This document shows positions 1 through 17,334 of a DNA stretch of 23,043 bases, one piece after another. How positions within the stretch are numbered: position 1 is the stretch's first letter; each line of letters opens with the position of its first letter. The DNA comes from a virus. The position numbers and the translations under genes are program-made. The notes beneath the pieces were generated by a model. The model did not search any database and had not been told where the DNA came from. It was given only the letters and a program-made list of their open reading frames with translations. The stretch lies in the UHGV virus genome UHGV-1317269; one strand, 5' to 3'.

Positions 1-5
1 TAATC

Positions 6-203
6 ATGCTGGCGCAACATGCTCTGCTTATAGCAATTTCAAGCGACTTAAATGCATATGGTGTTGTGTGTGAGTTCGACTGGAATGATGGAAATGGTCA
101 GGAAGGATGGCCTCCAATGGATGGTAGTGAAGGAATAAGAATTACCGATATCGACACATCTGGAATATTTGATTCAGATGATATGACTATCAAAGCCGCC
201 TGA
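6..203 (+). CDS. hypothetical early protein; frame is open to the window start, so the true start may lie upstream
   Basis: ORF in the same orientation as the early operon; acidic C-terminus; followed by a hairpin at 192-213. Confidence 0.3.
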   Translation: MLAQHALLIAISSDLNAYGVVCEFDWNDGNGQEGWPPMDGSEGIRITDIDTSGIFDSDDMTIKAA

Positions 204-278
204 GCGCGGCTTTACCGCATACCAATAACGCTTCACTCGAGGCGTTTTCGTTATGCAATCAAACAGAAGGAGCATCCT

Positions 279-449
279 ATGCAACAGTTCGCTATTGCAG
301 GGGCGGCATCGGTTCGCCCTTTCAACCCGATTTTATCGGTGCAGCATTCACGAAAAAATATTTTAACCGGAGCAGACTTTAAACAACCAAGAATGAAAAG
401 TTTGCTCGAAAAGCTTTGGGATATTTTGAAACAACAAGGCCGTCCATGA
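279..449 (+). CDS. small hypothetical protein (56 aa)
   Basis: ATG at 279 preceded by AAGGAG at 268-273 (5-nt spacer); stop TGA overlaps the next ATG (ATGA), typical phage early-operon coupling. Below the ORF-track size cutoff. Confidence 0.35.
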   Translation: MQQFAIAGAASVRPFNPILSVQHSRKNILTGADFKQPRMKSLLEKLWDILKQQGRP

Positions 450-530
450 GTTTTACGGATAACTGGTCAGACGAAGAATTCATTCGTCAGATGAACAAAA
501 TGCTCAATCAGCACAAAGAACAGGAGAAAG

Positions 531-842
531 ATGATGATTCTGACTCTGAATGATAAGCGTGAAATATCGCAAATAATCGCAAGTTTTACTGATGAAGATT
601 ACGAGCGAATCAACAGTGAAGTTGATCGCCTCTGCAAACGTTGCGACCCAATAAGCGAAATGCTTCGCTCATATAAACCAGATGAACACACTAAGGACGC
701 TATCGACTGGCTGGAAGATGATGACTGTAACTATCAGGAAAAAGCCGCTGAATGGTTCTGGGATGCAATAACCGAAAGAGTTAAGGCTGAATATGCCTTC
801 GCAATATTCAAACGCAGACACATTTTTGGAGAAGCAGCATGA
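531..842 (+). CDS. hypothetical protein (103 aa) immediately upstream of recT
   Basis: AGGAG at 520-524, 6 nt before ATG 531; stop overlaps the recT start (ATGA at 839-842). Confidence 0.5.
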   Translation: MMILTLNDKREISQIIASFTDEDYERINSEVDRLCKRCDPISEMLRSYKPDEHTKDAIDWLEDDDCNYQEKAAEWFWDAITERVKAEYAFAIFKRRHIFGEAA

Positions 843-1741
843 GCAATATCGTTGAATTCGTTAAACAGCAAGAGCAGTTATTCTGCGGAGCATTGACTGA
901 ACAGACGGTGACATGGGCTAAGGAAAGCCAGTTTGCAATTCAGTATTTCCAGAAAAATGATTACCTGGCTAAAACGGCACTGGCAAATCCAACCAGCGCA
1001 CAGAACGCCATCATCAATGTTGCGGCGATCGGCATCACCTTAAACCCGGCCAGCAAACTTGCTTATCTAGTTCCGCGCGACGGCATGGTTTGCCTTGATA
1101 TCAGCTATATGGGATTACTTCACCTTGCACAGTCGACAGGATCAATTAAGTGGGGGCAATGTAAACTGGTGTACTCAAACGACACCTATGAATCAAACGG
1201 CCTTGATTCAGCGCCAACCCACAAATACACCGCATTTGGTGAGCGAGGCTCTATTGTTGGTGGTTATTGCACGGTTAAAACAGCAGATGGTGACTACCTG
1301 ACTGAAGAAATGAGTCTGGCAGAAATTAAAGCTGTGGAAGCAACGAGCAAGGCAAAGAATGGACCGTGGAAGACATTCTGGGAAGAGATGGCACGTAAAA
1401 CAATAGTTAAACGCGCCAGCAAATACTGGCCTAAAGCATCACGTCTTGATAGTGCTATTCACGTATTAAATGAAGAAGAAGGTGTATGGACTGAACCAGT
1501 TATGCCGCACAAATCAGAGGAAGATATACGCGAAGATGAACGGAAACGCCAGCAGGAAATAATGGATAAAGCACAACTTCTTTGTGATGAAATGGCTCAG
1601 GCAGAAAACATGGATGATTTGAAGCGATATTTTGCAGAAGCATATCGCCTGACAGCTGGAATGAAATTGCAGCAGAACGTACAAGCCATTTACGCAGAAT
1701 GCAAAGCGAAACTGGAGGTTGCCAGTGAGCAAACTGTATGA
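839..1741 (+). CDS. recT: RecT-family single-strand annealing recombinase
   Basis: 300 aa; contains NGPWKTFWEEMARKTIVKRASKYWP, which matches the conserved RecT-family block (E. coli RecT GPWVTHWEEMAKKTAIRRLFKYLP as I recall it); GGAG 8 nt upstream. Confidence 0.8.
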   Translation: MSNIVEFVKQQEQLFCGALTEQTVTWAKESQFAIQYFQKNDYLAKTALANPTSAQNAIINVAAIGITLNPASKLAYLVPRDGMVCLDISYMGLLHLAQSTGSIKWGQCKLVYSNDTYESNGLDSAPTHKYTAFGERGSIVGGYCTVKTADGDYLTEEMSLAEIKAVEATSKAKNGPWKTFWEEMARKTIVKRASKYWPKASRLDSAIHVLNEEEGVWTEPVMPHKSEEDIREDERKRQQEIMDKAQLLCDEMAQAENMDDLKRYFAEAYRLTAGMKLQQNVQAIYAECKAKLEVASEQTV

Positions 1742-2207
1742 AATTGCCAATGAATACGCAAAATTGATGGATTCAGATTTAGAGCCAGAGATGATTGCTG
1801 ACACAATAGAAGGCATGGAAGGAGAATTTACCGATAAAATAGAGCAACTTCTCGCCATTATTAAAAATGAATCTGGTTATGCTGAACGCCTCAAGGAAGA
1901 GGCAAAGTCACTAAATGAGCGAGCCGCAGTAATTCAAAATAAGATTGACAGCATTATGGCGTATATAGCGTCATCGCTTGAAATGGTTGGCAAGAAAAAG
2001 ATTCGAGCAGGTATTCACCAGGTAACAATCCGCAAACCGTCAGAAACTGTAGAAATCATCGACTCAAGCGCCATTCCTCCTGAATACGTTGAGTTTGAAA
2101 CGACAATTAAAGCCGACAAACTGGCAATCAAACACCAACTAAAAGCAGGAATAAATATCCCCGGTGCTCAACTCAAAGTTGGGAAACCTTCACTTCTTAT
2201 CAAATAA
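1725..2207 (+). CDS. Siphovirus Gp157-like protein (commonly paired with RecT/Sak recombinases)
   Basis: N-terminal SKLYEIANEYAKLMD and overall size fit the Gp157 family as I recall it; GTG at 1725 sits 6 nt after GGAGG (1714-1718); the TTG at 1719 used by the ORF track is less likely. Confidence 0.55.
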   Translation: MSKLYEIANEYAKLMDSDLEPEMIADTIEGMEGEFTDKIEQLLAIIKNESGYAERLKEEAKSLNERAAVIQNKIDSIMAYIASSLEMVGKKKIRAGIHQVTIRKPSETVEIIDSSAIPPEYVEFETTIKADKLAIKHQLKAGINIPGAQLKVGKPSLLIK

Positions 2208-2218
2208 TTGTATCGCCT

Positions 2219-2533
2219 ATGAAAAAGACTCCATGGGAGAAATGGGAAGTCGATTTCTTGCGCGAAGTGGCGGCGACAATGCCAGTTGAAGTTATCGCTG
2301 AAAAACTGGAAAGGACTGAAAAAGCAGTAATGGCGAAAGCAACAAGGATTGGCGCTGACATTGTTAGCCGACTTCGTGGAAGACGATGGACAAGAGCCGA
2401 AGTATCACTTTTCGGTAAGTTCTCCGCAGAAGAAATAGCAATTGCAACCTGCCGCTCAATTTATTCAGTAAGAGCTATGCGATACAAGCTAAAAAAACTC
2501 GATGAAGAGAGAACAGGCATACGAATAAATTAA
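2219..2533 (+). CDS. hypothetical protein with two tandem Trp-anchored helix-rich repeats (possible Myb/SANT-like DNA-binding protein)
   Basis: 104 aa; two ~40-aa repeats of pattern W-x3-EV-x-(F/L)-...-E(V/I)(I)A-...-R(T/S)-...-V-x-A(K/M)-x-(T/Y)(R/K)(I/L). Confidence 0.4.
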
Positions 2534-2692
2534 CAAAGAGGAATTTACCATGAGAGGACTTGCATACAATCCCGGCATTCTTCCAGCAGAAATGATTATT
2601 CGCCAACGCGTAAAGCCAATGCCATCGAGAGAGGAATTGCTTAAGAGAAATTCTTTTCCATCAGTGAATCAAAACAAATATCTGAATGCGAT

Positions 2693-3298
2693 GTGGCGGA
2701 GTGGGAAGAAATGAAACAAATGTCACTAATTGAGATGGATGGTTTTCTGAAAGGTAAATGCATCCCACGAGATTTAAAGGTTAACGAAACAAATGCTGAA
2801 TATCTGGTGCGTAAATTTGCTGAAGCGGAGGCCAAGATTTCGGCTCTGTCCGAAGACCAGCAGAGAGCGATTGAGTCAATTAAGCAGGCTGATGCAGCTG
2901 TTAAGTTGGCACACGAGAAGTTTTCGGCGCTTGCGGCGGAGAATGCGGCAATGCATGAAACTATTGAAGCCGTTCGGAGTGTTGCGGATAACTCCAGTGG
3001 AATTGCCGGATGGCATTTGAATGGCGATATCGCTACATGGGAAGAGATTCTTCCTGAAATTAACGATATCGAAACTCCAGCTACCGATGCTTTCCTGTCT
3101 GAAGTGCGGGCGCAGGGGGTGGATGCTGCTATAGAAGCTGCAAAAAATCTGGTGGCCCAAGAATATGAGTATAAGGATTTCAAAGCGGCGCAGAGTGATT
3201 GCTGTATGCACCCTGGTTCAGACCTGGTAGGGAAGGTTGAAATGACTGAGTGGTTAGTTGACTTTGCTGCCCAGCTTCGCAAAGGAGGCAACCAGTGA
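2693..3298 (+). CDS. hypothetical ea-region protein (coiled-coil rich); start uncertain (GTG 2693 or ATG 2711)
   Basis: 201-aa ORF, same strand as the early operon; stop overlaps the next gene start. Confidence 0.45.
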
Positions 3299-4338
3299 GC
3301 CAGATTGATTATCAGGCACTGCGTGCTAAGGCAGAAAAAGCAACGTGTGGCGAGTGGTCGCTCGAATATGGAGAGGGCCGATTTGATGGTGATGATGCTC
3401 TAATTCATCGCGAGGCTGCTGGATATATTCCCATTTGCAGAATTGAAGGGGCGCATCCAGAAAGCGGTTTCGATGAAGATTTCCAAATGGAACAGCAGGC
3501 CAATGCTGAATTCATCGCCGCAGCCAATCCCGCTACCGTCTTGGCGCTGCTGGATGAGCTGGAAAGAAACCAGCAATACATCAAACGCCGCGACCAGGAG
3601 AACGAGGATATTGCGCTTACGGTAGGGAAGCTGCGCGTTGAGCTTGAAGCAGCAAAATCAAAACTCAACGAGCAGCGTGAGTATTACGAGGGCGTTATCT
3701 CGGATGGGAGTAAGCGTATTGCTGAACTGGAGAAAAGCGAAGAGCAACTCATCAACGAGCGTGACCATGCTGAGTATGCTTTAGCTGATATGTATTTTGC
3801 AGCAACCGGGAACAGGCCGGAATGGAGTAACTGTTTCAGTTTTTCAGATGCAGTAGATGCCGTAGTTGACAGAATTGCTGATTTAGAAGCTAAACAGCCA
3901 TCGCCAGTAGTACCGGAAGAAAAACCAATGCCGAACCCTCTTAGCATGTATGCGGTTGATGCGGTTGCAGCTATTGCAGAGGTGAGAGGCTGGAACGCCT
4001 GTCGTGCCGCCATGCTTCATGGTGCCAAACCTGTAAGCCAGACTTACAAGTTGAACAAGCTGTCGGGCAACTCTCCGGTAACTCCGGATGGTTGGGTCAT
4101 GGTGCCGAAGAGACTAACAGCCGAGAACGGCGCTAAGGGTGCGCTATCCGGTGAATTTTCAGAAACTACGTTTATCAGCTGCCCGGAATGCTTTGGCGAT
4201 GATGATTGCGATACCTGTGACGGTAGCGGGCGGATTGAAATTAAAGTACCAGTCACATGGACGACCATAAAATCCATCTGGGATAAAGGTATTGCGTATT
4301 TTGCAGCAGAACCGCCGCAGGAGGTTAACCTTGGCTAA
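3295..4338 (+). CDS. Ead/Ea22-like family protein
   Basis: 347 aa; GTG start at 3295 with AAGGAGG at 3282-3288; the block NAEFIAAANPATVLALLDELERNQQ followed by coiled-coil is typical of lambdoid Ea22-like proteins; C-terminal Cys-rich CPECFGDDDCDTCDGSG motif. Confidence 0.55.
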   Translation: MSQIDYQALRAKAEKATCGEWSLEYGEGRFDGDDALIHREAAGYIPICRIEGAHPESGFDEDFQMEQQANAEFIAAANPATVLALLDELERNQQYIKRRDQENEDIALTVGKLRVELEAAKSKLNEQREYYEGVISDGSKRIAELEKSEEQLINERDHAEYALADMYFAATGNRPEWSNCFSFSDAVDAVVDRIADLEAKQPSPVVPEEKPMPNPLSMYAVDAVAAIAEVRGWNACRAAMLHGAKPVSQTYKLNKLSGNSPVTPDGWVMVPKRLTAENGAKGALSGEFSETTFISCPECFGDDDCDTCDGSGRIEIKVPVTWTTIKSIWDKGIAYFAAEPPQEVNLG

Positions 4339-4615
4339 CCTACAACTTGCCGTTAAAGGTGAATACTTCGATGCCATGATTCGCAGAGAGAAAACGGAAG
4401 AGTATCGCCTGTGTAATGACTACTGGAATAAGCGAATTATGTTCCGGGAGTATGATCGCCTGATTATCACAAAGGGATATCCGAAGCGCGACGATTCCAG
4501 CCGTAGAATTGATGTTCCGTATGACGGATATGAAATCAAGACAATCACACATCCGCACTTCGGCGATAAACCGGTAAAGGTGTTCGCGATAAAGGTGAAT
4601 ATCGGCAATGAATAA
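4331..4615 (+). CDS. ASCH/PUA-like (DUF3850-like) domain protein
   Basis: TTG start at 4331, 6 nt after AGGAGG (4319-4324); overlaps the upstream stop by 8 nt; LQLAVKGEYFDAMIRREKTEEYR resembles the ASCH-like N-terminal beta-barrel motif. Confidence 0.45.
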   Translation: MANLQLAVKGEYFDAMIRREKTEEYRLCNDYWNKRIMFREYDRLIITKGYPKRDDSSRRIDVPYDGYEIKTITHPHFGDKPVKVFAIKVNIGNE

Positions 4616-4649
4616 CAATCCTCGAACTCGCGGGGATTTCTTTTATCTG

Positions 4650-4675
4650 AACTCGCTACGGCGAGTTTTGTTTTA
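4650..4675 (+). terminator. putative intrinsic terminator (AACTCGC-tacg-GCGAGTT followed by TTGTTTT)
   Basis: 7-bp perfect stem, 4-nt loop, T-rich tail, directly after the ASCH-like gene. Confidence 0.45.
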
Positions 4676-4687
4676 TGGAGATGATAA

Positions 4688-4855
4688 ATGCACTTCCGAG
4701 TTACAGGTGAATGGAATGGAGAACCATTCAACAGAGTTATCGAAGCAGAGAACATCAATGACTGCTATGACCACTGGATGCTGTGGGTGCAGATAGCACA
4801 TGCAGACGTAACCAATATTCGAATTGAAGAACTGAAAGAACACCAAAACGCCTGA
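4688..4855 (+). CDS. small hypothetical protein (55 aa, MHFRVTGEWNGEPF...)
   Basis: ATG 4688 with GGAG at 4677-4680 (7-nt spacer); ends at TGA 4853-4855 inside a terminator hairpin; below the ORF-track cutoff. Confidence 0.35.
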   Translation: MHFRVTGEWNGEPFNRVIEAENINDCYDHWMLWVQIAHADVTNIRIEELKEHQNA

Positions 4856-4868
4856 TGGCGGTTTTTTT
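4845..4868 (+). terminator. putative intrinsic terminator (AAAACGCC-tgat-GGCGG followed by T7)
   Basis: GC stem followed by a run of seven T at 4862-4868. Confidence 0.45.
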
Positions 4869-4879
4869 GGGGGTAGTAG

Positions 4880-5095
4880 ATGGCTGCAATTCACATTGTA
4901 TCAATAACATGCAATGCAATTCAGATAGTTGCTTGCATTATCTTTGTTTTCTCAATCCTTCGCTCCCGACGATATTCTCCAGCAATTAACCGACATCCTG
5001 CACAAGTTGAAGCCGTCAGGATGGCTATAGAGTTACGAAATGAGATGAATAAGGCATTAATGGAGATGGAGAAACCATTCACTGACAAACATTAA
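4880..5095 (+). CDS. hypothetical small protein with hydrophobic N-terminal segment
   Basis: 71-aa ORF directly after the terminator; N-terminus IVSITCNAIQIVACIIFVFSIL looks like a transmembrane helix. Confidence 0.3.
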   Translation: MAAIHIVSITCNAIQIVACIIFVFSILRSRRYSPAINRHPAQVEAVRMAIELRNEMNKALMEMEKPFTDKH

Positions 5096-5203
5096 GAGTG
5101 GAAATAAAGAAATCACACCGCCTCACACTCGATGAGGCCTGTTCATTTCTCAAGATATCCAGACCTACCGCAATAATACCAATTCAATAAATGGAGATTC
5201 CAA

Positions 5204-5551
5204 GTGGAAGAAGAAATCTTCACTCGTGAAGAAGCTGCGTCGTATCTGAAGGTAGACAAAGGCACTATCACGCAGTGGATACGAAGTGGACGACTTCAGG
5301 CCGCAAAGATAAATCCAGATAAACCTAAAAGCCCATATCGCATTTGCAAGTCAGACTGCATTGCGGCGCTTAAGTCTGTGAGACACAATAGCGCGGTGAA
5401 TGCGGTTGATGTGCAGGAGGTTAAAGCATGTCAATCAAACTACGCGGTGGCACGTGGCACTGCGATTTCGTCGCGCCAGATGGATCAAGAGTTAGACGCT
5501 CTCTTGAAACATCGGACAAAAGGCAAGCGCAAGAACTTCACGATCGTCTGA
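5204..5551 (+). CDS. xis: excisionase (P22 Xis-like, HTH)
   Basis: 115 aa; GTG start 7 nt after GGAG (5193-5196); HTH-like EEAASYLKVDKGTITQWIRSGRL; sits immediately upstream of int and overlaps it by 124 nt in another frame, as in P22. Confidence 0.65.
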   Translation: MEEEIFTREEAASYLKVDKGTITQWIRSGRLQAAKINPDKPKSPYRICKSDCIAALKSVRHNSAVNAVDVQEVKACQSNYAVARGTAISSRQMDQELDALLKHRTKGKRKNFTIV

Positions 5552-6588
5552 AAGCAGAAGCGTGGAGAGTAAAAAATCTCGGGGAATCGCCGAAAAAGCT
5601 ATTCAAGGAAGCCTGCATACGGTGGCTGCGTGAGAAATCGGATAAGAAGTCCATTGATGATGACAAGAGCATTATATCGTTCTGGATGTTGCACTTCAGA
5701 GAAACCATTCTCTCTGACATAACAACAGAAAAAATAATGGAGGCGGTAGACGGGATGGAAAACCGCCGCCATCGCCTGAACTGGGAGATGAGCCGGGACA
5801 GGTGTTTGCGGCTTGGCAAGCCAGTGCCGGAGTATAAACCAAAGCTGGCAAGCAAAGGAACGAAGACGAGGCATCTGGCAATACTTCGCGCCATTCTCAA
5901 TATGGCTGTTGAATGGGGATGGATTGACAGGGCGCCAAAAATATCAACACCACGCGTTAAGAATGGACGCATTAGATGGCTTACAGAAGAAGAATCAAAG
6001 CGCCTGTTTGCAGAAATAGCTCCTCATTTCTTCCCTGTTGTCATGTTTGCAATCACGACAGGCCTTCGCCGCTCCAACGTTACAGACCTTGAGTGGTCAC
6101 AGGTCGATCTGGATAAGAAAATGGCATGGATGCACCCTGATGAAACAAAAGCTGGCAATGCGATCGGAGTTCCTCTTAACGAAACCGCATGCCAGATATT
6201 AAGAAAACAGCAGGGTCTCCATAAGAGATGGGTATTTGTCCACACCAAACCTGCCTACCGAAGCGACGGAACAAAAACAGCAGCGGTAAGGAAGATGAGA
6301 ACCGACAGCAACAAGGCATGGAAGGGAGCGTTAAAGCGGGCAGGCATTAGCAACTTCCGATTCCATGACTTGAGGCATACTTGGGCAAGCTGGCTGGTTC
6401 AGTCCGGTGTCTCTCTTCTTGCACTTAAAGAGATGGGAGGATGGGAAACTCTCGAAATGGTTCAAAGATACGCTCACCTTTCAGCCGGGCATCTCACCGA
6501 GCACGCGAGCAAAATCGATGCGATTATAAGTCGCAATGGCACAAATACGGCACAAGAGGAGAACGTGGTTTACTTAAATGTGAGGTAA
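5428..6588 (+). CDS. int: tyrosine site-specific integrase (phage integrase family)
   Basis: 386 aa; AGGAGG 7 nt upstream; catalytic signature residues visible (TGLRRSNV, HDLRHTWAS, VQRYAHL); transcribed towards the att core that starts 15 nt after its stop. Confidence 0.92.
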   Translation: MSIKLRGGTWHCDFVAPDGSRVRRSLETSDKRQAQELHDRLKAEAWRVKNLGESPKKLFKEACIRWLREKSDKKSIDDDKSIISFWMLHFRETILSDITTEKIMEAVDGMENRRHRLNWEMSRDRCLRLGKPVPEYKPKLASKGTKTRHLAILRAILNMAVEWGWIDRAPKISTPRVKNGRIRWLTEEESKRLFAEIAPHFFPVVMFAITTGLRRSNVTDLEWSQVDLDKKMAWMHPDETKAGNAIGVPLNETACQILRKQQGLHKRWVFVHTKPAYRSDGTKTAAVRKMRTDSNKAWKGALKRAGISNFRFHDLRHTWASWLVQSGVSLLALKEMGGWETLEMVQRYAHLSAGHLTEHASKIDAIISRNGTNTAQEENVVYLNVR

Positions 6589-6602
6589 CTTATTGATTTA
6601 AA

Positions 6603-6648
6603 TGGTGCCGATAATAGGAGTCGAACCTACGACCTTCGCATTACGAAT
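6603..6648 (-). other. attP core: 46 nt identical to the 3' part (anticodon loop through CCA) of a tRNA-Thr(CGU) gene, thrW-type; not a complete tRNA
   Basis: Reverse complement reads ATTCGTAATGCGAAGGTCGTAGGTTCGACTCCTATTATCGGCACCA: anticodon loop with CGT, T-arm GGTTCGACTCC and 3' CCA; the 5' half of the tRNA is absent (homology stops at 6648). Confidence 0.8.
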
Positions 6649-6931
6649 CTGTAGCACCTATCATAACTATCTGTTTTAGCAAGCATTAACCGCATTCACT
6701 AAGCTATAGTTGATGGCACAAACAGAAAGCTGATGCATGATGTTGTCATGTGTATGTCACAAATACGGCACAACGATCTTCAAACATGTAGCCACACATC
6801 AACAGAAGAGCACAACGCCTTGCAATCAAGTGCAAAGCTTTGTGTGCATCAGTTTTGTCTCATAGGTAATGAGGCTTTAACTGCGATGCAGTAATCCATA
6901 CTAAAATTTACTTAAAATTCATAAATACACC

Positions 6932-6965
6932 AGATAAAAACAATCCCGCATTTTTTATGCGGGAT
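6932..6965 (-). terminator. intrinsic terminator downstream of the tailspike gene
   Basis: ATCCCGCA-ttttta-TGCGGGAT hairpin (6943-6965) followed on the minus strand by TTGTTTTTAT. Confidence 0.55.
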
Positions 6966-6983
6966 ATACTGCATTTATTGCAA

Positions 6984-9689
6984 CTACATTGCCATTAATA
7001 TAAACATAGCCAATTCGTCATAACGAATTCCGTAGCGTCCTCCTGCTTTTTTTACAAGAATCATATCTCCTGTTTTATATTGAGAATAAATTTTCTCACC
7101 TGTATCAGGATCTGTGCTCTCTTCAGTTATCACCTCTTCATCCCATACGTCAGGCCATTCATCGTAACACCAAAAAGCATATTGCTCAGGGTTTAAACCA
7201 TGCTTTCTAAGAATATCCCCTACGGTTTGAGCGCCAACGCCAAAATGATACCTGGACGACTCAATTCCTTTGTGATTAATTGAGTCATTAAATTTAAATT
7301 TATAGATGACTGACTTTATTTCAATAGCGGCATCACGCTCTGCATTAAGAATATCATATCTTGTTTTAAGAGTTTCATCTGATGTATTGATTGACCCGGT
7401 TCCTGCATAAATAACAGAGCATCTGTTTGATGGCTGTCCAATAGCTTTAACATTATCATCAACAGGAGCTATTTTATTAGCATCTGCCAACCACCAGTCT
7501 GTTCCATCAGCGTGACCGATTCTTACTCTTATCCCGCTTCTAATATTTAAACTTCCAGTATTACTCTGTAAATTACAATCTCCTGACGTTGGTCCAAGCA
7601 GTACAGTTTTACCAACACCACATACTACTCTGGCATTTCCTTTTTGTGATACGAGTCTTGACTCACCTCCTGACTGCTCAGGAAGAGATTTATGGTCTAT
7701 AAATGCATCGCGGGGGTTAAATACACCGTCTCCAGAATTATATCTTCCTCCTGTATAGTTGTTAAATACAGGACCCCAGTCAACGCCATTGCCTTCAGAG
7801 CACCCGACCATTCTAAGCACTCGAGTATTCCCTGCTGCATATGGTAATGAGCTTGTTGATTGCCGGGAAGCTATCATACGTGCTCCATAACCAATAGCAT
7901 TACCACCATTTATAGTTACATATGCTTGCTGGCTTTCGAAATATGTACTGTAAAAGTTCATATTTCCACAGTCATGTAGATGAATAAGAACATCATCCCA
8001 TCCCTGAATGGTTCCTGCATGTACCTGTACACCGCGAACTGGTTCCCCTGAAACCTCCATACACTCTGATGGCCGGCTGAATGGCTGAGACAGGTATTGC
8101 GATGTGGCAAGCAGATGTGTGTGGTGATACAGGCTGGTAATGTAGCAATCGAAAAATTGCGTTCCCGCCATACCAAAGTTATCTATGTCATTTCGCCGTA
8201 TAGTAGAACCTACTGTTGCCTCAGAAGCGTTAGACACTCCAGTAAATACTAACTTATCACCGGATACGGATAATCCTGAATAAGTGAAATTCCTGCCTCC
8301 AGATCTTAAAACCCCGGACGTTTCGAAGGTGTGGCTTGCTGACCATGGGATTTCGATAGTGCTGGACGTTACCGCTGTAATTCGGAATACATCATGGGCG
8401 CGGATCGAAACACCCTTGAATCCTTGGAATCTACAGTGATAATAGTTTTCATCCTCGCCCTGAGCAGCCAGCGTGCCAGATACAGGAATGTTCGTTTTTA
8501 AAAGTGCCGTCTTGCGCCAGTATCCAACCACCTGCAAATTGCGGTATTCATTGCCAAAAGACGCACGTGACCAAATACCTACATCCCACTCATCGCCAAG
8601 ACCGGTATTTGCAATGTCTTTATAACCATCCAGCCCATTGAAATATGGAACAATACGAAAGTTCTCAAGGCGAACACATCCTGTCTCAGGCATCAATATT
8701 GCGGCAGAGAATGGTTTAAGTGTGGCTCTTGTAGCCCCATTAGCATCACCGTTAGTAAAATCCAATAAATCATATGATGAAGCAGGTGCCGTTGTTGTAT
8801 ACGGGTCTTCGGAAGATGGATTAGAAACCACGCCACCACTAACATCCATATTAGAAACACAATCTACAGTATATTTTTTATTTCCTACCCCGTACATCAG
8901 GAATGTGGTCCCTGTGGTAATATCAGGAGCAAATGTTGCAGTATATCCTGAGACCCATTTGCCCACACCAAGACAAATTATCCCACCACCAGAAACAGGT
9001 GTTAACGTATCCGTTATTACATACGCATTATCAGTACCATAAATAACCTTTCCTGTGTTAAGGGCAGCTTGCCACGCGGCCCAGTCTATTGACTGAGATA
9101 ATGAGTCAACAAAAGGATATAAGGATTTTGCTTCAGAAATTGAAGAAAACCACTCAGATAATGGATGATATTTCCCATCCCCAATTGCTCCAAATTGTTT
9201 TACATTTAAGAAAAGAGCATTGTTTTCATGCTGAGTTATAGTTACAGCCCCGGTAAATGGCTGCCTTACCCCAATTAATGCATCACCTTTTGAATCATCA
9301 TTAATGTATGCTCCTGATTGAGATAACTGCTCTTTGAAGTCTGGGCCAAACTGATCTGGATCGTATTTTAATACATTTGGGAAATAAAACTGCTGAGTGC
9401 CATAAGCATCGTAAACAGCCATAGAATGGCCTTGCACAGTTACGAACTTGGCAATCTGTCCGTTATATACCGGATATCCAGCAGCGTTAATGATGATTGG
9501 TTGCAAAACAGGAACGCGAGAACCGTCTTCGTTCTCTACATAAACCTGAATCTGGTTTTCAGGATTTACCGGGTCAGTGTCAATTTTTCCGATATAAATT
9601 TTGCCATTGGCAACCGCTTTAAAAGAACGAGCCATAGTGAAGAGTTGCGAAGGCATGCTTACCACAACATTGGCTGTAATGTCTGTCAT
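6984..9689 (-). CDS. tailspike protein: P22 gp9-like N-terminal head-binding domain, divergent receptor-binding body, C-terminal intramolecular-chaperone (peptidase S74-like) domain
   Basis: 901 aa; first ~110 aa ([11 protein letters not shown]...[32 protein letters not shown]...VLKYDPDQ) match the remembered P22 tailspike N-terminus; central region rich in G/S/T/N repeats; C-terminal [11 protein letters not shown] fits the S-D-x3-K autocleavage motif of chaperone domains. Confidence 0.88.
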
Positions 9690-9747
9690 TTAATTTGCTC
9701 CAGATACAAGGAATCTCCGCAGCGGGGCTACGGTGAATTTTGGGCAT

Positions 9748-9770
9748 AAAAAAACCCAGCCGAAGCTGGG
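9748..9770 (-). terminator. intrinsic terminator between ant and the tailspike gene
   Basis: Minus strand reads CCCAGC-ttcg-GCTGGG followed by TTTTTTT. Confidence 0.6.
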
Positions 9771-9789
9771 TAGTTGCGTTGGTTATCTG

Positions 9790-10692
9790 TCAGTGGTTAT
9801 GTACTGAAGGAGGTAATTCTTTATTCTTAAGTCTCATCCATGCGGAAAGATTCGTTGGTCCGTCTGGCTCATTGATATCAACATCTCGTGTGTGATTAAT
9901 TAAAACGTCCCTCGCCATTCCGATAACATACGAGAACTCATGACCGTAGTCGTAGCATCTGCCGGAATAGTTCGATTGAATTTGTTTTAATGCCGGATAC
10001 AGTTCGCGGAATAATGCCTGTGAGCGATTGGCATAATCCCATAGCCATACAAGGCTGTTTGCTTCTTTTGCAGAAAGCTCGTTGGTTTTCTTCTCTTGTT
10101 TGCCAATGAACTCACCTTCAAGCACTACCCTGTGGATGTACTCTACGGCTTTCGGTATCTGAGATGCATCAAGCTCTTCAATACTTTCCACATTGAAACG
10201 CTGATGAATCATTGCATAAGCTTCTGGGTACATTAGATGCTTTTTGCTGACCAGCATATTTACAGCATCACGAAGCGGAGTCCTGTCATCAACAGATGTT
10301 TTCTTACGTGCATTTTCTGCCTTTCCCTTCGTCCAGTAGTCATGCAGCACAGTAAAGCATTCTTCCTGGTACTGAATCAGTTTATCACGGATGTCAGCAC
10401 GAACTTTCTCAGGGTTGATGCTGAACAGCCATCCATTTAACTTCTTCAAAGGAAGACAGAGTAGCTTACGAAGCTTACCATCAGCGGCAACCATGTTCAT
10501 ATGAACACAGTTGAATTTGCTAATCTGCTTCATGAGTTTTGTTTGCTGCGTTGACCAGCTCATTCCAAGGTTTTCAACGATTGGCTTCATCGCAACATAT
10601 GCAACTCCGGCAGCCATGGCGGTGATAATTTGCTGACCGTTGAATGGTACGTAAGAGGTGTTCACTGCTTCTAAAATTGCTATACTATTCAT
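9790..10692 (-). CDS. ant: antirepressor Ant (P22 immI)
   Basis: Start set at MNSIAIL (ATG 10692, GGAG upstream), giving 300 aa, the length of P22 Ant; directly downstream of arc as in P22; the upstream in-frame extension used by the ORF track is not adopted. Confidence 0.7.
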
Positions 10693-10693
10693 G

Positions 10694-10760
10694 TTGGTTT
10701 TTCTCCACGGATTTACTGACAAACGAAGCCCTGACTGTTCCCGCAGTTGGGGCTTCAACT
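10694..10760 (+). ncRNA. candidate sar-like antisense RNA region covering the ant ribosome-binding site (by analogy with P22 sar)
   Basis: Plus-strand -10-like TATACT at 10681-10686 inside the start of ant; extended hairpin GAAGCCC...GGGCTTC at 10725-10756 in the arc-ant spacer. Inference only, exact ends unknown. Confidence 0.3.
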
Positions 10761-10922
10761 TTACGCGCCAATGCGCCCTTCCTTCTTAAAGCTTTCCATT
10801 ACTCTCTGATAAATCTCAGAGTTAACAGACCGACCATTCTCTTCCGCCACCTTGCGTACCAAATCCAATACTTCTTTAGGCCACCGCAAATTGAACTGCG
10901 GCATTTTGCTCATTCCTTTCAT
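10761..10922 (-). CDS. arc: Arc repressor (ribbon-helix-helix)
   Basis: 53-aa translation [53 protein letters not shown] is essentially the P22 Arc sequence as I recall it; the ORF track's N-terminal extension is not used. Confidence 0.95.
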
Positions 10923-10936
10923 GTTCACCTCACAAT

Positions 10937-10957
10937 ATAGGTCCACGGTGGACCTAT
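10937..10957. promoter_or_regulatory. Mnt operator (O_mnt), overlapping the Pant promoter
   Basis: Perfect palindrome ATAGGTCCACGGTGGACCTAT, the known P22 mnt operator. Confidence 0.8.
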
Positions 10958-10964
10958 TGAGAAT

Positions 10965-10985
10965 ATAGTAGAGTGCTTCTATCAT
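10965..10985. promoter_or_regulatory. Arc operator (O_arc) in the divergent Pant/Pmnt region
   Basis: ATAGTAGAGTGCTTCTATCAT, matching the P22 arc operator sequence. Confidence 0.8.
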
Positions 10986-11012
10986 GTCAATACACTAACT
11001 TGGAGTGATGGC

Positions 11013-11264
11013 ATGGCTAGAGATGATCCGCACTTTAACTTCCGTATGCCTATGGAAGTAAGGGAGAAATTAAAATTCAGGGCGGAGGCGAATGGGAGAT
11101 CAATGAACTCCGAGTTGTTACAAATCGTCCAAGATGCTCTATCAAAACCATCGCCTGTGACTGGATATCGTGACGATGCAGAACGACTCGCTGATGAGCA
11201 GTCAGATCTTGTTAAGAAGATGGTGTTTGATACGCTGAAGGATTTGTACAAAAAACCCACCTGA
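11013..11264 (+). CDS. mnt: Mnt repressor (maintenance of lysogeny; ribbon-helix-helix)
   Basis: 83-aa translation MARDDPHFNFRMPMEVREKLKFRAEANGRSMNSELLQIVQDALSKPSPVTGY... matches remembered P22 Mnt; divergent from arc. Confidence 0.95.
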   Translation: MARDDPHFNFRMPMEVREKLKFRAEANGRSMNSELLQIVQDALSKPSPVTGYRDDAERLADEQSDLVKKMVFDTLKDLYKKPT

Positions 11265-11278
11265 CGGTGGGTTTTATT
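11250..11278. terminator. bidirectional intrinsic terminator shared by mnt (+) and the converging minus-strand accessory operon
   Basis: AAAAAA-CCCACC-tgac-GGTGGG-TTTTATT; the mnt stop codon lies in the loop. Confidence 0.6.
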
Positions 11279-11699
11279 AGTGCTTGTATAGCTTGAACTC
11301 CCTGTCGAGCCATAAGACATAAAAAGTGGCTCCTATCTTATAACCAACCATAGGTGCCTTAGAGCAAAATCTGAACGCAATGAAATCCACATCTTGAGTA
11401 ACATGCTTAGGAATCGGAGCCTTTATCGCGTTTCTGGCAATTTTTTCCGTCCCAAGCCCGTGTTTATCAGATTTTCGTATCTCATCCCATGACATCTGAC
11501 TTAACCTGAACAGCCTATCTGCAAATGCTGCCTTTTCATGCTTTTGGCAGCAATCCAGGCAATACCCCTTTTGTAGGTATCTAAGAGAAAATACAGGCGG
11601 ACTTTTTTCTACATCATGAGATTCGTGATGGATAGAGAGGCCAACAGTAGCAGAGCTCTCTTTATCCCTCTGTTTTATTCTTCCCTTAACTCTAGACAT
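11277..11699 (-). CDS. hypothetical 140-aa protein, candidate toxin/effector partner of the upstream Panacea-domain protein
   Basis: Starts 5 nt after the stop of the upstream gene; no confident family assignment from reading; contains an R-x4-H element (RKSDKH) and a beta-rich C-terminus (MVGYKIGATFYVLWLD). Confidence 0.5.
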   Translation of the reverse strand: MSRVKGRIKQRDKESSATVGLSIHHESHDVEKSPPVFSLRYLQKGYCLDCCQKHEKAAFADRLFRLSQMSWDEIRKSDKHGLGTEKIARNAIKAPIPKHVTQDVDFIAFRFCSKAPMVGYKIGATFYVLWLDREFKLYKH

Positions 11700-11704
11700 A
11701 CACG

Positions 11705-12148
11705 TCAGTTAATTAACGTTTTGAAAAAACCTTTCATAGAATCAAGTGTGATTTCTTGGCTAACCGCACCCTCAATGTAAGCATCTTTCCATGGCTGCTC
11801 TTCGTGAGTCATATTGCGCAGTTTCCAGGCAGAAAACTGACCATAAACTTTATACACCTCATCCAGCAATTCAATTTCATCTTCACTGAATTTTTTAGCG
11901 TCAAAGTTTTCTGGCGCAGGTAAAGCTCCGTTACCACAGTCCCTATATTTACGATACAATTCAGGAACTACTGGCCCATGCATCCAGGCTTCAATTTTCT
12001 CATTAAATAGCGGCTTACCCAGAAGAACCAGAGAAAACCCTTGGGCATAATACGTCAACTTCTGAATTTTTAGGTTAGAGATAATGTCGCCACTTTCTTC
12101 ATCGCAATGCGCCAAGAAGTAGTCGGCGACATCAAAACAAGTGAGCAT
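11705..12148 (-). CDS. Panacea-domain (DUF4065, PanA/SocA/GepA-like) protein, candidate antitoxin
   Basis: NLKIQKLTYYAQGFSLV...FNEKIEAWMHGPVVPELY resembles the conserved core of DUF4065 as I recall it; start placed at the Met 7 nt after GGAGG (the ORF-track start is 2 codons upstream); AT-rich relative to the late genes. Confidence 0.55.
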   Translation of the reverse strand: MLTCFDVADYFLAHCDEESGDIISNLKIQKLTYYAQGFSLVLLGKPLFNEKIEAWMHGPVVPELYRKYRDCGNGALPAPENFDAKKFSEDEIELLDEVYKVYGQFSAWKLRNMTHEEQPWKDAYIEGAVSQEITLDSMKGFFKTLIN

Positions 12149-12522
12149 AAACATACCTCCATCTTGATAGCCGCAGCTATGTATACAACTGTGTCAAGTT
12201 GCATTTAATACCATAACAAAGCTGTCATCAATCCTTCAGAGGCTAACTTACAACCACTTTCTCGACACGTTTAAATCATTACGTTTCACATTTACTGCAT
12301 TTTCGCCGAAGTTACCTATAAGGTAATGTCACATTTCCTGCAAGTTTCATGCAATGTTGAAAAGTGAGCTATTCACTTTTCTATGACACTAAACACCAAA
12401 AATAGCACTTTTTGCTAAATCATTCGTCCAAGTTGTGGATGGCTTGTCGTTGACACGTTTTCACACACCACTCCACCAATACAGTATCATCTGGTATCCT
12501 GCTCAAAACTAAGGAGGTTGGT

Positions 12523-12729
12523 GTGAAGCGATGGGTTATCGGTCTTGCTGCAGTTACTGTTTTTATTTTCTCGGCTTCGACTGGTTACGGGGTTAGATTC
12601 TCATCATCAAGAATCAACGATAAGATTGAATGCAGATACATAAGTGTTTCCGGCAAATTCTCCAGAAATTACTGGTATTCAGATAATGGAATCATGGGAA
12701 TTAGCAATTGCCCTTTATTTGACAGATAG
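12523..12729 (+). CDS. small membrane-anchored or secreted protein (68 aa)
   Basis: GTG start 5 nt after AAGGAGG (12511-12517); N-terminal hydrophobic segment WVIGLAAVTVFIFSAS. Confidence 0.4.
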   Translation: MKRWVIGLAAVTVFIFSASTGYGVRFSSSRINDKIECRYISVSGKFSRNYWYSDNGIMGISNCPLFDR

Positions 12730-12746
12730 CCATCCGTGGCTCCTAT

Positions 12747-13037
12747 TCATTTTTTACAGGCGATGAGCAGATTCCTTGATATGGTGTTACCTGCAAATGC
12801 CATCTCTGGGTTTGCCGTTGCCAAAAATCCTTTGTCTCCTGCAGATGTCAAGACATCATATCCTTTGCTTCCACACAAATCGCCAGCCTTGGTTAGACAC
12901 ATACCCCATGAACCACCAAGACCTGAGCAATCAATAGTGTATGCCTCTCTGCCATCAGGCGCGTATGTTTTAGAAGATGTTGCACAACCAGACAAAAGAA
13001 TGACATTAAAACAAGCAACTGCAATGATCCGCTTCAT
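12747..13037 (-). CDS. putative lipoprotein (accessory gene downstream of gp16)
   Basis: MKRIIAVACFNVILLSGC is a signal peptide with a lipobox (LLSGC); Cys-rich mature part; preferred over the overlapping opposite-strand ORF 12736-13074. Confidence 0.5.
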   Translation of the reverse strand: MKRIIAVACFNVILLSGCATSSKTYAPDGREAYTIDCSGLGGSWGMCLTKAGDLCGSKGYDVLTSAGDKGFLATANPEMAFAGNTISRNLLIACKK

Positions 13038-13132
13038 ATCAATTTCCATATTTACAAAACCGGAAACATCCTAATGACAAAACAATCAAATGTGAAGCAC
13101 GAGATAAGATCAATCCATCCGTGGACGACTAA

Positions 13133-15259
13133 TTACTCCTGTGTCATTCCGCTTAGCGATGCCACAATCCCAGCCCTCGCTAATTGCTGAAACTCTTCGT
13201 TTCCGACTGTATCACGTATCGCTTTTACGGCAGCTTTATTTGCCATAAATCTGCGTTCAGCCGCCACTAATGCTTCTTTGCTTCCGCCTGCTCTTACTGC
13301 TTTAGTTGCTTCCTGAACTGCTTTCTCTATCGCATACCGACCACTACGTGTGGTGGCAATTTTAGATACAGCGCCTTTTAACCCAGCGCCAACTAAAGCA
13401 CCTGCGGCAGCGCCTGCAATGCCTCCTCCAGCGCCACCAACAATGGCACCTGATGTTGAGTTGGCAATTGCATTTAACACTGTTGATGTGACGTTGGATA
13501 AACCAGCATCCAGATCGCGTAGTACATTGGCAGTTCTCCCTGTTCTTTCAATATACTGCTGAGGTTTCACTGCTGCTCTTGCAAGAGTGCCATATGCATC
13601 AGCAATTCTTCCAAGCTCTGAGGAATATCGGCTAATGGCTTTTACATTTTGTGGAGTGAGTATCTCTGCGATATGGTTAATTCCTGCGGCATCAGCTTTG
13701 CCACCACGTACACCATGCGAGATGGCATCCTGCAACATTGATGATATAGCAGGAACACGCTCTGATTCTGGCAGAGCGCGGATCATAGAATGGAATCCAG
13801 CAGGACCATTGAGACCTTTAGCTGACGATGATTGAAGAGATTTTACTCCATTCGTAATCAGTGCATCTGTTGCCAAATCACGCCCGAAAACAGACTCTGC
13901 ACTCTCTTGTGCTGATAATCTCGCTTTAGACAGATCATTAGCTTTTTGCCAGTCATCAAGAAATCCGCCGTTTTCCGCCATTGTGCGCATATCATCAGTA
14001 ATTGCCCGGCGTATTTCCCCTGCTCTCCTTGCCGCATTTGCCTCTCCGCTACGCTTATATTTTTGCTCCGCATCAGCAAATTTCGCTCTCCATGCTTTCA
14101 TGCCATCAAATGTTACTCCACCTTGATTGTTTGCCTGAACAAACTGTTTCATTTCAGTAGTAAGCGGTATGCCGGCAGATCGCTCTGCCTGAATAACGGC
14201 ATTACCATTTAGCATTCTTGCTTTTTGATTTGGCATTGTTGACCGCACGTCATCCCATGCCGCGCGCTCGGCATCCTTCATCTGATCAAGATTTTGAAGA
14301 ATCCTTTGTTTTATAGCCGCACTTTTTTCTGATGCCGTTCCAGATGCGGCCCCAAATTCATCAAGGTTTCGACTTAACTTTGATGATATTTCGTTAAATG
14401 CTGCCTGATGGGCGTCCTGAACAATTCCTGGTGTTGATGCCAATGCGCCTTCGGCTTGTGCAATTCCACGACTTCCAGATCGCATTCCTGGTGTTAATGC
14501 GTTTATATCAATTCCAGCAGACTCAGCCGCTTTTGCTACATCTTCGGACACATTAGCGGCCTGTCTGGCAATTGACTGACGCCCAGCACCTGACTTTGCC
14601 ATCCTGGAAACATCATTAGCAGAATTCAGTGCTGCACCACCAAGAGCCTGTGAAACCCTTGGCGCAATAACGCGCCCGACACCTGAAAGAACGCCTTGAG
14701 CACCAATATTGATACCACCGTTAATGGCAGTATTTTGTGCAAAATCACCCTCCTGATTTGCAGCATCAGCAAGAGAACCTGCAATCATGTTTCCTGCGGA
14801 ACCGATGTCTCCTGCGAGCTTTGCTGGCGCTCCAGCAGCTTTTGCCGCTGTGCCAATTGGCAGGAGATACCCACCAATTGTTTCACCGGCTTGCGCGTAA
14901 GGGTCTGTCGGTCGATCGACTGGACGATAGACATCATCCAATACTTTTGGCCCACCAAGCCCCTGACTGATTGCATTAATCAGGCTTGCGCCGCCCTGCA
15001 ATACGTCAAATGGTATGTTTACCAGACCACGACCAGCCTGCTCTGCAATTTGCCCTGCACTTTGACCACCTGTGAGCCAATCGCCAGCTTGTTGCATCAA
15101 TGATGGTTCTTCACGTGCTGGTTCATTATTGGCCTGATTAACTGTTTGTTGCTGAACAGCCTGACCAGCAAAATACTCATCAATGGCGGTACCAATATCT
15201 TCCGTGCTCGTACCATCAGGGAAGGTAAATTTCTTACCGTTTGCAGTTACTTTCATCAT
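13133..15259 (-). CDS. ejection (injection) protein, P22 gp16-like
   Basis: 708 aa, in the gp16 position after gp20; Ala/Gly-rich low-complexity stretches; stop/start overlap with the upstream gene. Confidence 0.7.
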
Positions 15260-16668
15260 TCCACCGTAAATTGAATGCCTGATTTTGAGGTATATGATCC
15301 AACCTGATTCCGTGGTTCTCCTGAAGGTGTCGAATCTTGTGCTGGCGCTGCGTCAGTATTCATTGACATATACCGCTTAACGGCACTCCCCAATGATTCA
15401 CCTTTTTTAACATCCAACCCCAATATCTGACCGCCATTACGCGATTGTCCAGGGTTGCCATTCGCGCTCATCCACTCAGCTTTAAACTCATTAAACTGCG
15501 CGTTTCGTCGCTCAAGGTTTGCCATTGCATCAAGCCATCTTGCGACCGTCTCAGGGTTATCCATGTCAGTTGGCGCACCCTGTCGAACAATCTCAACGTC
15601 TTTATCCGTTGCTGGGCCGGGAGGTAGGAATTTAAGAACCTGACTGTTAACAAGGGCATTTTGGCGAATGCGCAAATCACGCAATGTCGTATCGCTTCCG
15701 GTAAGTTTTGCGAACATGTTCTGTGCGTTACCGAACAAACCGGTCGTTGGTTTTTCTGCTCTGAACTGTTGAGCAAGCGCACTCATGGAATTGGCTGAGT
15801 TTGATGATGCTGTGGCATTGTTTACAGCCGTCTCGATGCCTTTTTCCATGTTTACTGACAGCTTAGGTGCTTCGCTAATCAACTGCTGAGCCTTTTCCTG
15901 CGCTTGCTGCATCTTAAACCCGAACTCTTGCTGATCCAGAGCCAAGCGTTGTGCTGCGATATTGTGCCCAGTCATTGCTGACTGATAGGAAAGGTTTTGC
16001 CCTCTCGCCTGAAGTGCTTCACCAGCCTGATTGCTGCGGATTGTCTCTGCCAGCCTGCCTCGGTCAATTTCACGAACAGCCATCTTGTCCTGAACATTGA
16101 AGTAATCAATCGGACCAAGAGCAGCCATCCCAAGGTGATCAACAAACTCACCAAATCCTGAAGGATTCTGCTGATACATTTTCGCCACATCCAGAGGGTC
16201 TACTCCGGCACGAGTAAGCTCAGATGAGTTGTTCTGCAACCATGACATCATGGCTTCTGGAGATGAAGCTGCCAGTCTGGCACTTGCTGCCAGTGTGCCG
16301 ACAGTGGAACGCTGGTCTTCATCGACAAATTTCATGCCGTTTCTTACAGCGTCAAACTGCTCAGGATACTGTGATGCCAGTTTTCGCATTGCATCGCGGT
16401 CACCAGATGTATATGCATCAGCATAAGCCTGCTGAAACTCTTGCTGTCGCTTCTGCTGATCCATCTGCTTATACATATCCATGACAGATGAAATGCCCTG
16501 CAAAGCCTGCAAGCCAACGTTATTACGTCCTGAACGCTCCATCTCGTTATTCTGTCGAATGTATGCAAGCGTGGCGTCTGCATCACTTGCTCTTGGAGCG
16601 TTGGAGTTCATGCCGCCTAACCCGGCAAGAAGCGCGCCTGAATTACCAGCCTGTTGCCATGTAGCCAA
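15256..16668 (-). CDS. ejection protein, P22 gp20-like
   Basis: 470 aa (P22 gp20 is about this size), located between the gp7 and gp16 homologues. Confidence 0.7.
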
Positions 16669-16680
16669 GAGACACCTCCA

Positions 16681-17334
16681 TTAAAAAAGTGAACCAAGAA
16701 GACCGACGCCAGCACCAATTGCTGTACCCCAACCAGGCATGATTGCAGTACCTGCAGCTGCACCTGCTGCCGCTCCACCCAAGGCGCTCTGAAATCCTGA
16801 TGGTTTATTCGCATTAGCCGCAGATGCTGCCGCCTGCTGTTGATACAATTGGCTGACGTTGTTAGCGTAGTTCTGCCCAGCGTTTGCCTGACCTGTAAGA
16901 GCACCAAGGCCGATATTTGCCAGATTGTTGTAGTTGTTCATCTGACCTGACAGCCAGTTTTGACCGAGTGTAGGTGCGATTGCTGCTAACTGGTTTCCTG
17001 TTGCTGTAGAGCCTAATCCACCCGTTGCCTCTGCTGCTGCCAGACTCTGATAGCGCGCCTGCCCTGCAAGGTCTTTATACTGCTGAGAGTTGTAATACTG
17101 GTTAAGCGCCTGACCTTGCCCCTGAAGAGAGGAAAGATTTTGCAACTGTGATACGTACTGCTGAGCGAGTGGCGTGAACGGTGCAAGGTTCTGCATGTTC
17201 GTTTGCCACATTTCACGCTGCAATTCGATGCCCTTTTCAGTTGCGCGTGCCTGGGCTTTTGAACCGCCATCACTGCCACCTTTGCAGTAAACAGTTTTGC
17301 TGAGGTGCTTATTGGCAATCTGGAAAATTAACAT
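16681..17334 (-). CDS. ejection protein, P22 gp7-like
   Basis: 217 aa, Q/A/G/N-rich, position between gp14 and gp20. Confidence 0.65.
   Translation of the reverse strand: MLIFQIANKHLSKTVYCKGGSDGGSKAQARATEKGIELQREMWQTNMQNLAPFTPLAQQYVSQLQNLSSLQGQGQALNQYYNSQQYKDLAGQARYQSLAAAEATGGLGSTATGNQLAAIAPTLGQNWLSGQMNNYNNLANIGLGALTGQANAGQNYANNVSQLYQQQAAASAANANKPSGFQSALGGAAAGAAAGTAIMPGWGTAIGAGVGLLGSLF

Follow-up and report, generated by a model that had tools for sequence, protein, structure and literature searches.

The 23,043-nucleotide (nt) stretch analyzed here, UHGV virus genome UHGV-1317269 (hereafter the window, meaning the whole of this DNA), is P22-like prophage DNA of Escherichia coli, and the tailspike gene that it carries is the subject of this study. 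The open reading frame (ORF) runs over positions 6984..9689 on the minus strand, starts with ATG, and encodes 901 amino acids (aa) plus a stop codon. Its product is identical to RefSeq entry WP_021514129.1 (“phage tailspike protein”) of E. coli DLL7555, with 100% nt identity to NZ_CP186931.1, and phrog_1171 (“tail spike protein”) matches it over aa 1-901; an NCBIfam profile search of the tailspike returned no meaningful match. The tailspike label is already in RefSeq and the architecture is well known from CUS-3 and K1F, with the full-length colinear proteins (WP_021514129.1 and phrog_1171) being uncharacterized entries rather than a characterized tailspike. In DLL7555, whose chromosome matches window positions 6598-20296 at 99.96-100% identity, the tailspike gene closes a P22-like virion module that also encodes portal, scaffold, coat, gp4, gp10, needle knob, and ejection proteins; an Arc/Mnt/antirepressor immI region follows. 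A P22-like virion module is likewise present in the window, where ORFs match P22_CoatProtein, P22_Tail-4, and Phage_stabilise. With moderate confidence, we read the protein as the tailspike of a P22-like temperate E. coli podophage that was built by cassette exchange and whose substrate is most likely the K13/K20/K23 capsule.

A sequence-only reading of the gene had confined its resemblance to the P22 tailspike to about the first 110 residues. We observe that Pfam Head_binding PF09008 aligns over its full length of 113 profile positions with aa 1-113 (9351..9689, minus strand; E = 3.4e-66, 221 bits for a cutoff of 24), and that this head-binding (tail-docking) domain has further matches among PDB tailspike chains (P22, Sf6, and related ones), including 1lkt, 2vky, and 8eb7. 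Similarity to the P22 tailspike chains (2vky, 2vnl, and 2xc1) ends at approximately aa 117 to 123, while similarity to Sf6 gp14 reaches aa 175 (E = 6.7e-85), weakening past approximately aa 117, with an Sf6-like linker at aa 114-132 (9294..9350, minus strand) that aligns to Sf6 gp14 residues 114-132. The restriction of P22 likeness to the N terminus therefore stands, but judged by these alignments the conserved N-terminal module is aa 1-132, that is, the head-binding domain together with the Sf6-like linker.

The receptor-binding body that follows, aa 133-726 (7512..9293, minus strand), opens with an N-terminal cap, SKGDALIGV, and continues as a predicted right-handed parallel beta-helix, a putative K13/K20/K23 depolymerase. 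An AlphaFold2 monomer model of aa 114-901, built from an alignment of 88 sequences of distant relatives, has a mean predicted local distance difference test (pLDDT) score of 88.5, with a long beta-rich body above 90 and a poorly modeled stretch before the cleavage site (fragment residues ∼560 to 660); low stalk scores are expected when an intertwined trimer is modeled as a monomer. In this model, the body is a single-chain right-handed parallel beta-helix of the pectin-lyase fold that is typical of polysaccharide depolymerases, a fold class dominated by enzymes. Foldseek matches the model to the tailspikes of phi297, LKA1, Sf6, and CBA120, the structural neighbors of the body including the O-antigen tailspikes CBA120 TSP1-4, Sf6, and HK620, and the KGDALIGV cap at the start of the cassette also matches the N termini of the LKA1 and phi297 tailspikes. 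The predicted fold lends support to the depolymerase proposed by the sequence-only reading, whose target, left unspecified there, can be narrowed to a probable K13/K20/K23 capsule on the host evidence given below.

With respect to the family to which the body belongs, 1,341 clusters at 50% identity reach E ≤ 1e-3 in a search of cluster representatives, and the members carry many different N termini, with or without an S74 domain. Seven of 10 homologues scanned match the pectate-lyase-like model PF12708 at the start of the body. Across 88 family members (23 to 76% identity), R430 and E585 are invariant and D369, D433, H522, E545, and R552 are nearly so, which makes these seven conserved positions candidate substrate-binding or catalytic residues. 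Some distant homologues of the body (P0137, P0150) have Tat-like N-terminal signal peptides and no phage adaptor domains, with P0137 keeping S74, an indication that the body family also includes secreted bacterial enzymes. A literature search on the protein, its accessions, and phages YZ1, KMB14, and LF31P3 found no characterization of this tailspike or of a close homologue.

The C-terminal stalk, aa 727-769 (7383..7511, minus strand), holds D745 and R756 in the alignment to 4uw8, and the C-terminal positions 126-160 of PF12219 End_tail_spike match aa 735-769 at 22.8 bits, under the cutoff of 25. Beyond the stalk lies the predicted intramolecular chaperone domain, aa 770-901 (15.3 kDa; 6987..7382, minus strand), for which the sequence-only reading had relied on an S-D-x3-K motif. 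This motif, SDETLK, occurs once in the tailspike, with Ser770 and Lys775, and Pfam Peptidase_S74 PF13884 matches aa 770-832, beginning exactly at that Ser770, with a marginal score of 23.0 bits (1 bit above the cutoff of 22). When the last 202 aa were searched alone, solved intramolecular chaperone domains were matched: 7y5s, the Klebsiella phage Kp7 fiber gp51 (8.8e-23); 3gw6, the K1F endosialidase chaperone (2e-14); 4uw8, T5 pb1 (6.9e-12); and 3gud, the GA-1 gp12 neck appendage (3.3e-9), with the family profile scoring the same chaperone chains at 1e-18 to 1e-40. The modeled domain is a confident alpha/beta structure (pLDDT 89 to 97), to which Foldseek assigns a probability of 1.0 for 3gw6, 4uw8, and 3gud (target template modeling scores of 0.39 to 0.75; 0.68 to 0.75 for 3gud). 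The proposed chaperone domain was thus recovered both by domain search, with matches to S74 and to solved chaperone domains, and by structure prediction, which also returned the beta-helix body.

Kp7 gp51 and T5 pb1 provide the best-matching chaperone domains, and the D/R/T-S/K constellation is kept position by position with pb1: D745 aligns with pb1 Asp1239, R756 with Arg1250 (contributed by the neighboring chain), T769-S770 with the scissile Thr1263-Ser1264, and K775 with Lys1269. The predicted autoproteolytic bond, Thr769-Ser770 (7380..7385, minus strand), also aligns with Ser911 of the K1F endosialidase, which is Ala in 3gw6. By alignment, then, the C terminus is an S74-type intramolecular chaperone domain with all five pb1 autoproteolysis residues in place. 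The roles of these residues come from the published pb1 mechanism, in which the need for an arginine from the neighboring chain couples cleavage to correct trimer folding (PMC4690869), and by analogy this coupling probably applies to the present tailspike too. The predicted products of cleavage are an 83.1-kDa mature spike and a 15.3-kDa fragment. The likeness ends at the chaperone, since the mature distal domain of pb1 is a nonenzymatic “bullet” that binds O-antigen mannose (PMC4690869), whereas the window tailspike has a beta-helix before the stalk.

Comparisons at the DNA level show how the gene is assembled. In many other P22-like prophages, homology to the window takes in the virion genes and the tailspike gene up to its nt 339 and then breaks off at window positions 9349-9352, that is, at codon 113. 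The prophage of strain YDC107, which is of a different type (T7 gp14-family core proteins, inserted near yfgI), encodes a 991-aa protein that is 99.0% identical in nt over gene nt 399-2705, giving its last 769 aa, while its first 205 aa are unrelated to the window tailspike; the linker at aa 114-132 falls outside this match. The sister P22-like tailspike of OZ040490 (824 aa) is 93.5% identical in nt over gene nt 1-339 and 87.8% over nt 2257-2706, with a body that is only a distant family member, and the latter segment (aa 753-901; 6984..7433, minus strand) is a conserved 3′ recombination handle shared with P22-like tailspikes of different body. Two-piece DNA matches to the tailspike gene are found in genome matches H46-H50. 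The boundaries in the three comparisons delimit a variable body (from aa ∼114/133 to ∼752) between two conserved handles. We conclude that the body is an exchangeable cassette and the tailspike gene a mosaic, which bears out the swapped module that had been proposed.

The same cassette extends into lytic phages. Kayfunavirus YZ1 gp35 is 72% identical in aa sequence over aa 131-901 and carries a T7 gp17-like fiber N terminus, and the spikes of Vectrevirus KMB14 and LF31P3 are 41 to 42% identical. A search for protein homologues of the body gave nothing below 99% identity but revealed two architectures (901 and 991 aa), which are encoded on hundreds of draft-genome contigs. YZ1 gp35 and the YDC107 protein (“tail fiber domain-containing protein”) thus have the same body and chaperone cassette behind different N-terminal adaptors, and they are annotated only as hypothetical or tail fiber proteins. 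A precedent exists in the CUS-3 prophage endosialidase of E. coli K1, which has the same plan of a P22-type N terminus, a capsule-degrading middle, and a chaperone released at a conserved Ser. CUS-3 has its N-terminal domain in common with P22, Sf6, and HK620, and K1F has the same catalytic part on a T7 fiber N terminus (review PMC5380687), a pairing that is repeated here between a P22-like prophage and Kayfunavirus YZ1.

The base composition of the gene had been described as AT-rich compared with the morphogenesis genes, which is true but modest, at 41.9% GC (32% at third codon positions) versus 47 to 51% in the ejection and tail genes at 13133-20350. AT content is highest in the linker region at aa 114-202 (36.7% GC) and in the C-terminal domain (37.7%), followed by the head-binding domain (41.9%) and the body proper (44.2%).

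Fifteen carriers of the tailspike body were counted among 5,426 complete E. coli genomes, with the full-length tailspike gene in eight genomes and the body behind another N terminus in seven more. Surface-polysaccharide loci were examined in one carrier per type, DLL7555 and YDC107. Their O-antigen clusters differ, being O6 in DLL7555 and O102 in YDC107 (a search with the O102 wzy gene was uninformative, 107 genomes tying at 100%), which makes the O antigen unlikely as the common receptor. In both, region 2 of the group 2 kps locus consists of a gene for a 1,114-aa “HAD family hydrolase” (krkA) and an acetyltransferase gene, the krkA region 2 copies being 97% identical between the two strains. 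The DLL7555 copy, WP_001336789, is KrkA, the sole polymerase of the K13/K20/K23 backbone, →3)-beta-D-Ribf-(1→7)-beta-D-Kdop-(2→, as described in a 2026 JBC paper (PMC12887879), and the K13 reference strain NCTC9022 is among the krkA matches. A K2 capsule, our first guess from region 2 gene content, as in CFT073, was rejected on this identification of WP_001336789 as the KrkA of K13 strain NCTC9022.

Across the genome set, krkA is present in 65 of 5,426 genomes (1.2%) and in 11 of the 15 carriers (Fisher’s exact p = 4e-19, for an association of carriage with host genotype among genomes that are not phylogenetically independent). All 65 krkA genomes were inspected; a second search, with the YDC107 allele, recovered the same 60 of them, and none of the other five is a carrier. 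The krkA-positive carriers differ in krkA allele (two, diverged by 3%), in O type (at least two), and in prophage backbone (two, unrelated), and they hold the prophage in at least five contexts (thrW/vat-yagU, argW-yfdC, ybhB-bioA, beside another integrase, and near yfgI). We therefore regard a ribose-Kdo (K13/K20/K23) capsule depolymerase as the best explanation of the body, somewhat better supported than the alternatives combined.

Several results weigh against this assignment. On the side of the protein, no Pfam beta-helix model (e.g., PF12708) matches the window tailspike itself at E ≤ 0.1, the S74 match barely clears its cutoff, and the family profile matches solved structures only in the N-terminal cap and in the C-terminal stalk and chaperone, with none through the catalytic core, which leaves both the chemistry (hydrolase or lyase) and the identity of the catalytic residues to conjecture. 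On the side of the hosts, the association is drawn from the carrier genomes, and 4 of the 15 carriers (LS45, XH992, OZ547246, and 23CRST013) are without krkA. In LS45, the kps region 1 proteins are identical to YDC107’s and region 2 is different; XH992 shares the pheV island of LS45, and no kps was found where it would be expected; and in OZ547246 (E. coli AHB29; locus L020, ∼31600-32100), the segment of the pheV island that borders kpsF in DLL7555 is joined via an integrase fragment to cadC. These krkA-negative carriers fit capsule switching or loss after lysogeny but could also mean a broader or different receptor.

The latter option is the strongest competitor, namely, that the enzyme depolymerizes another glycan (another group 2 or 3 capsule, several K types, or colanic acid) and that the link to krkA merely reflects shared lysogen ancestry. 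The same krkA allele recurs in many krkA-positive carriers, the statistic being inflated by this clonal relatedness, and LS45 clearly has another region 2. Nevertheless, the diversity of the krkA-positive carriers in allele, O type, prophage backbone, and integration context and the low background frequency of krkA are hard to reconcile with ancestry alone. The krkA-negative carriers, too, are partly accounted for: the identical region 1 beside a different region 2 in LS45 and YDC107 indicates an apparent capsule switch within a related lineage, and OZ547246 has its prophage at the same site as the krkA-positive DLL7555, with the same island, and its cadC junction suggests that a large rearrangement or deletion removed or relocated kps in a close relative of a K13 strain. 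We consider another glycan rather improbable, although clearly the best placed of the alternatives.

As observations on these loci in their own right, region 2 of LS45 (locus L015, 14460-24631) holds glf, two GT2 genes, and a sugar dehydrogenase gene, and that of YDC107 (locus L013, 13733-18137) holds krkA and the acetyltransferase gene. LS45 retains the prophage with the putative K13-type depolymerase. The cadC gene at the OZ547246 junction is from a distant chromosomal region.

An O-antigen-specific tailspike that binds and cuts the lipopolysaccharide O-polysaccharide, as in P22, Sf6, and HK620, might be expected from the P22-like phage backbone, from the resemblance of the N-terminal 175 aa to Sf6 gp14, and from structural neighbors that include CBA120 TSP1-4, Sf6, and HK620. 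The O-antigen endorhamnosidases Sf6 gp14 and P22 gp9 do have a head-binding domain like the present one, Sf6 also sharing the linker and first helix cap (aa 1-175), and both have the beta-helix fold class in common with the body, but they show no sequence similarity to it past approximately aa 175 and have no S74 chaperone domain that is cleaved off. For the window tailspike, their receptor type is disfavored by the host data, as bodies about 97 to 99% identical occur in hosts with the unrelated clusters O6 (DLL7555) and O102 (YDC107). Furthermore, the gtr/oac conversion module that usually adjoins the tailspike in O-specific P22-like phages is absent, the interval from tailspike to int in the window holding neither gtr nor oac, and the close relatives of the body are found in Kayfunavirus and Vectrevirus phages. 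The capsule-specific phages K1F, K1E, and K1-5 belong to these genera. An O-antigen specificity is therefore very unlikely.

Equally hard to credit is a body that binds its receptor without enzymatic activity, or a C-terminal domain that is kept as a distal binding domain in the mature spike. Catalytic residues cannot be assigned by homology and the S74 Pfam score is marginal, both of which would be in line with such a spike, but acidic, basic, and histidine residues that are invariant or nearly so in family members as little as 23% identical, a fold class in which enzymes predominate, and the complete set of T5 pb1 autoproteolysis residues speak for cleavage of both substrate and chain. An endosialidase (GH58) was ruled out, since endosialidase chains match only the stalk and chaperone (with PF12219 confined to its sub-cutoff positions 126-160) and the body is a beta-helix; the name “putative endo-N-acetylneuraminidase” of one cluster mate, from one source, is an artifact of the shared C-terminal domain. 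CUS-3 and K1F accordingly differ from the window tailspike in having a GH58 beta-propeller in place of a beta-helix of an uncharacterized family and polysialic acid as substrate in place of what is likely the ribose-Kdo K13/K20/K23 polymer.

Returning to the K13/K20/K23 depolymerase, the most likely course of events is as follows. Three tailspike chains would fold into a trimer, with aa 770-901, as intramolecular chaperone, nucleating the intertwined C-terminal stalk. Once the stalk is folded, Lys775, as general base, would activate Ser770, with Asp745 and Arg756 of the neighboring chain forming the oxyanion hole, and the Thr769|Ser770 bond would be cut, releasing the 15-kDa fragment and leaving the 83-kDa mature spike. 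Residues 1 to 113 would dock the trimer onto a P22-type tail hub, and the central right-handed beta-helix (aa ∼133 to 726) would bind and cleave the surface polysaccharide, allowing the virion to reach the outer membrane. The substrate would most likely be a group 2 capsule with the K13/K20/K23 backbone given above, and its cleavage is probably hydrolytic, through acidic residues that are conserved in the helix. The gene itself arose by exchange of the cassette between the 5′ handle (head binding) and the 3′ handle (chaperone).

Around the tailspike gene, an intrinsic-terminator-like hairpin (6943..6965, minus strand; a 9-bp stem followed by a T-run, from a consensus scan only) lies 19 nt past the tailspike stop. 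An intact tyrosine integrase gene (5428-6588, plus strand) is convergent with the tailspike gene, and window positions 1-6597 further contain genes for RecT (839-1741), Gp157 (1719-2207), and Ead/Ea22 (3295-4338); this part has no counterpart beside the tailspike in DLL7555. The order in the window is the vegetative one of P22 (tailspike, attP, int), and strain CH10508 shows a similar arrangement of tailspike, convergent intS, and tRNA-Arg at argW. On the other side of the tailspike gene, a P22-type antirepressor gene (9790-10758, minus strand; P22_AR_N and P22_AR_C) is intact in the window; in the DLL7555 prophage, otherwise identical, its annotation records a frameshift. A Panacea/SocA antitoxin-domain gene (PF13274; 11705-12154, minus strand) in the immI region, between the ejection and the Arc/antirepressor genes, is likewise annotated in DLL7555 and 23CRST013 and may be half of a prophage-borne toxin-antitoxin or defense pair.

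The right end of the window is a fold-back with its junction at 20293-20296. Positions 6598-20296 match the DLL7555 prophage in one direction (locus L001, 17093 down to 3395), and positions 20293-23043 match the same prophage reversed (L001, 682-3432; 100% identity), the two segments overlapping by 38 bp on the prophage. The gp10-like gene (19196-20350, minus strand) is consequently truncated, lacking ∼100 profile positions at its start, and is faced by plus-strand genes for coat (20627-21922) and gp4 (22106-22687). This looks like an assembly chimera or an inversion rather than a normal P22-like gene order.

In biological terms, the tailspike is a case of textbook modular tailspike evolution and not surprising as such. 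What the analysis adds is the cassette boundaries, the full set of autoproteolysis residues, the low likelihood of the O antigen as receptor, and the prediction of a K13/K20/K23 substrate. In the literature searched on K13/K20 phage depolymerases and Kdo glycanases (older biochemical papers not covered), no gene was assigned to such an activity and no cloned or sequence-assigned phage depolymerase for K13/K20/K23 was found. Cleavage of the beta-ketosidic Kdo linkages of K13/K20/K23 by phage-borne glycanases was reportedly described biochemically by Altmann et al. in 1986 and by Nimmich and coworkers in the 1990s. We tentatively suggest, at somewhat less than even confidence, that the aa 133-769 body could be the first sequence-level representative of a phage endo-glycanase for ribose-Kdo K13/K20/K23 capsules and its beta-helix family a new glycoside-hydrolase family; if so, the founding member of the new family would be Kdo or ribofuranoside cleaving, and the family would be one without a solved structure. 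K13/K20/K23 capsules are found in extraintestinal pathogenic E. coli, namely, urinary isolates (O6:K13-like), O102 lineages of the carbapenemase era, and some O25b:H4 strains, and the 5′ and 3′ handles mark natural splice points at which P22-like and T7-like phages could be given new capsule specificities. If the enzyme is confirmed, it would provide a capsule-typing reagent, an anti-virulence or phage-engineering module, and a founding member from which a very large uncharacterized beta-helix family could be annotated.

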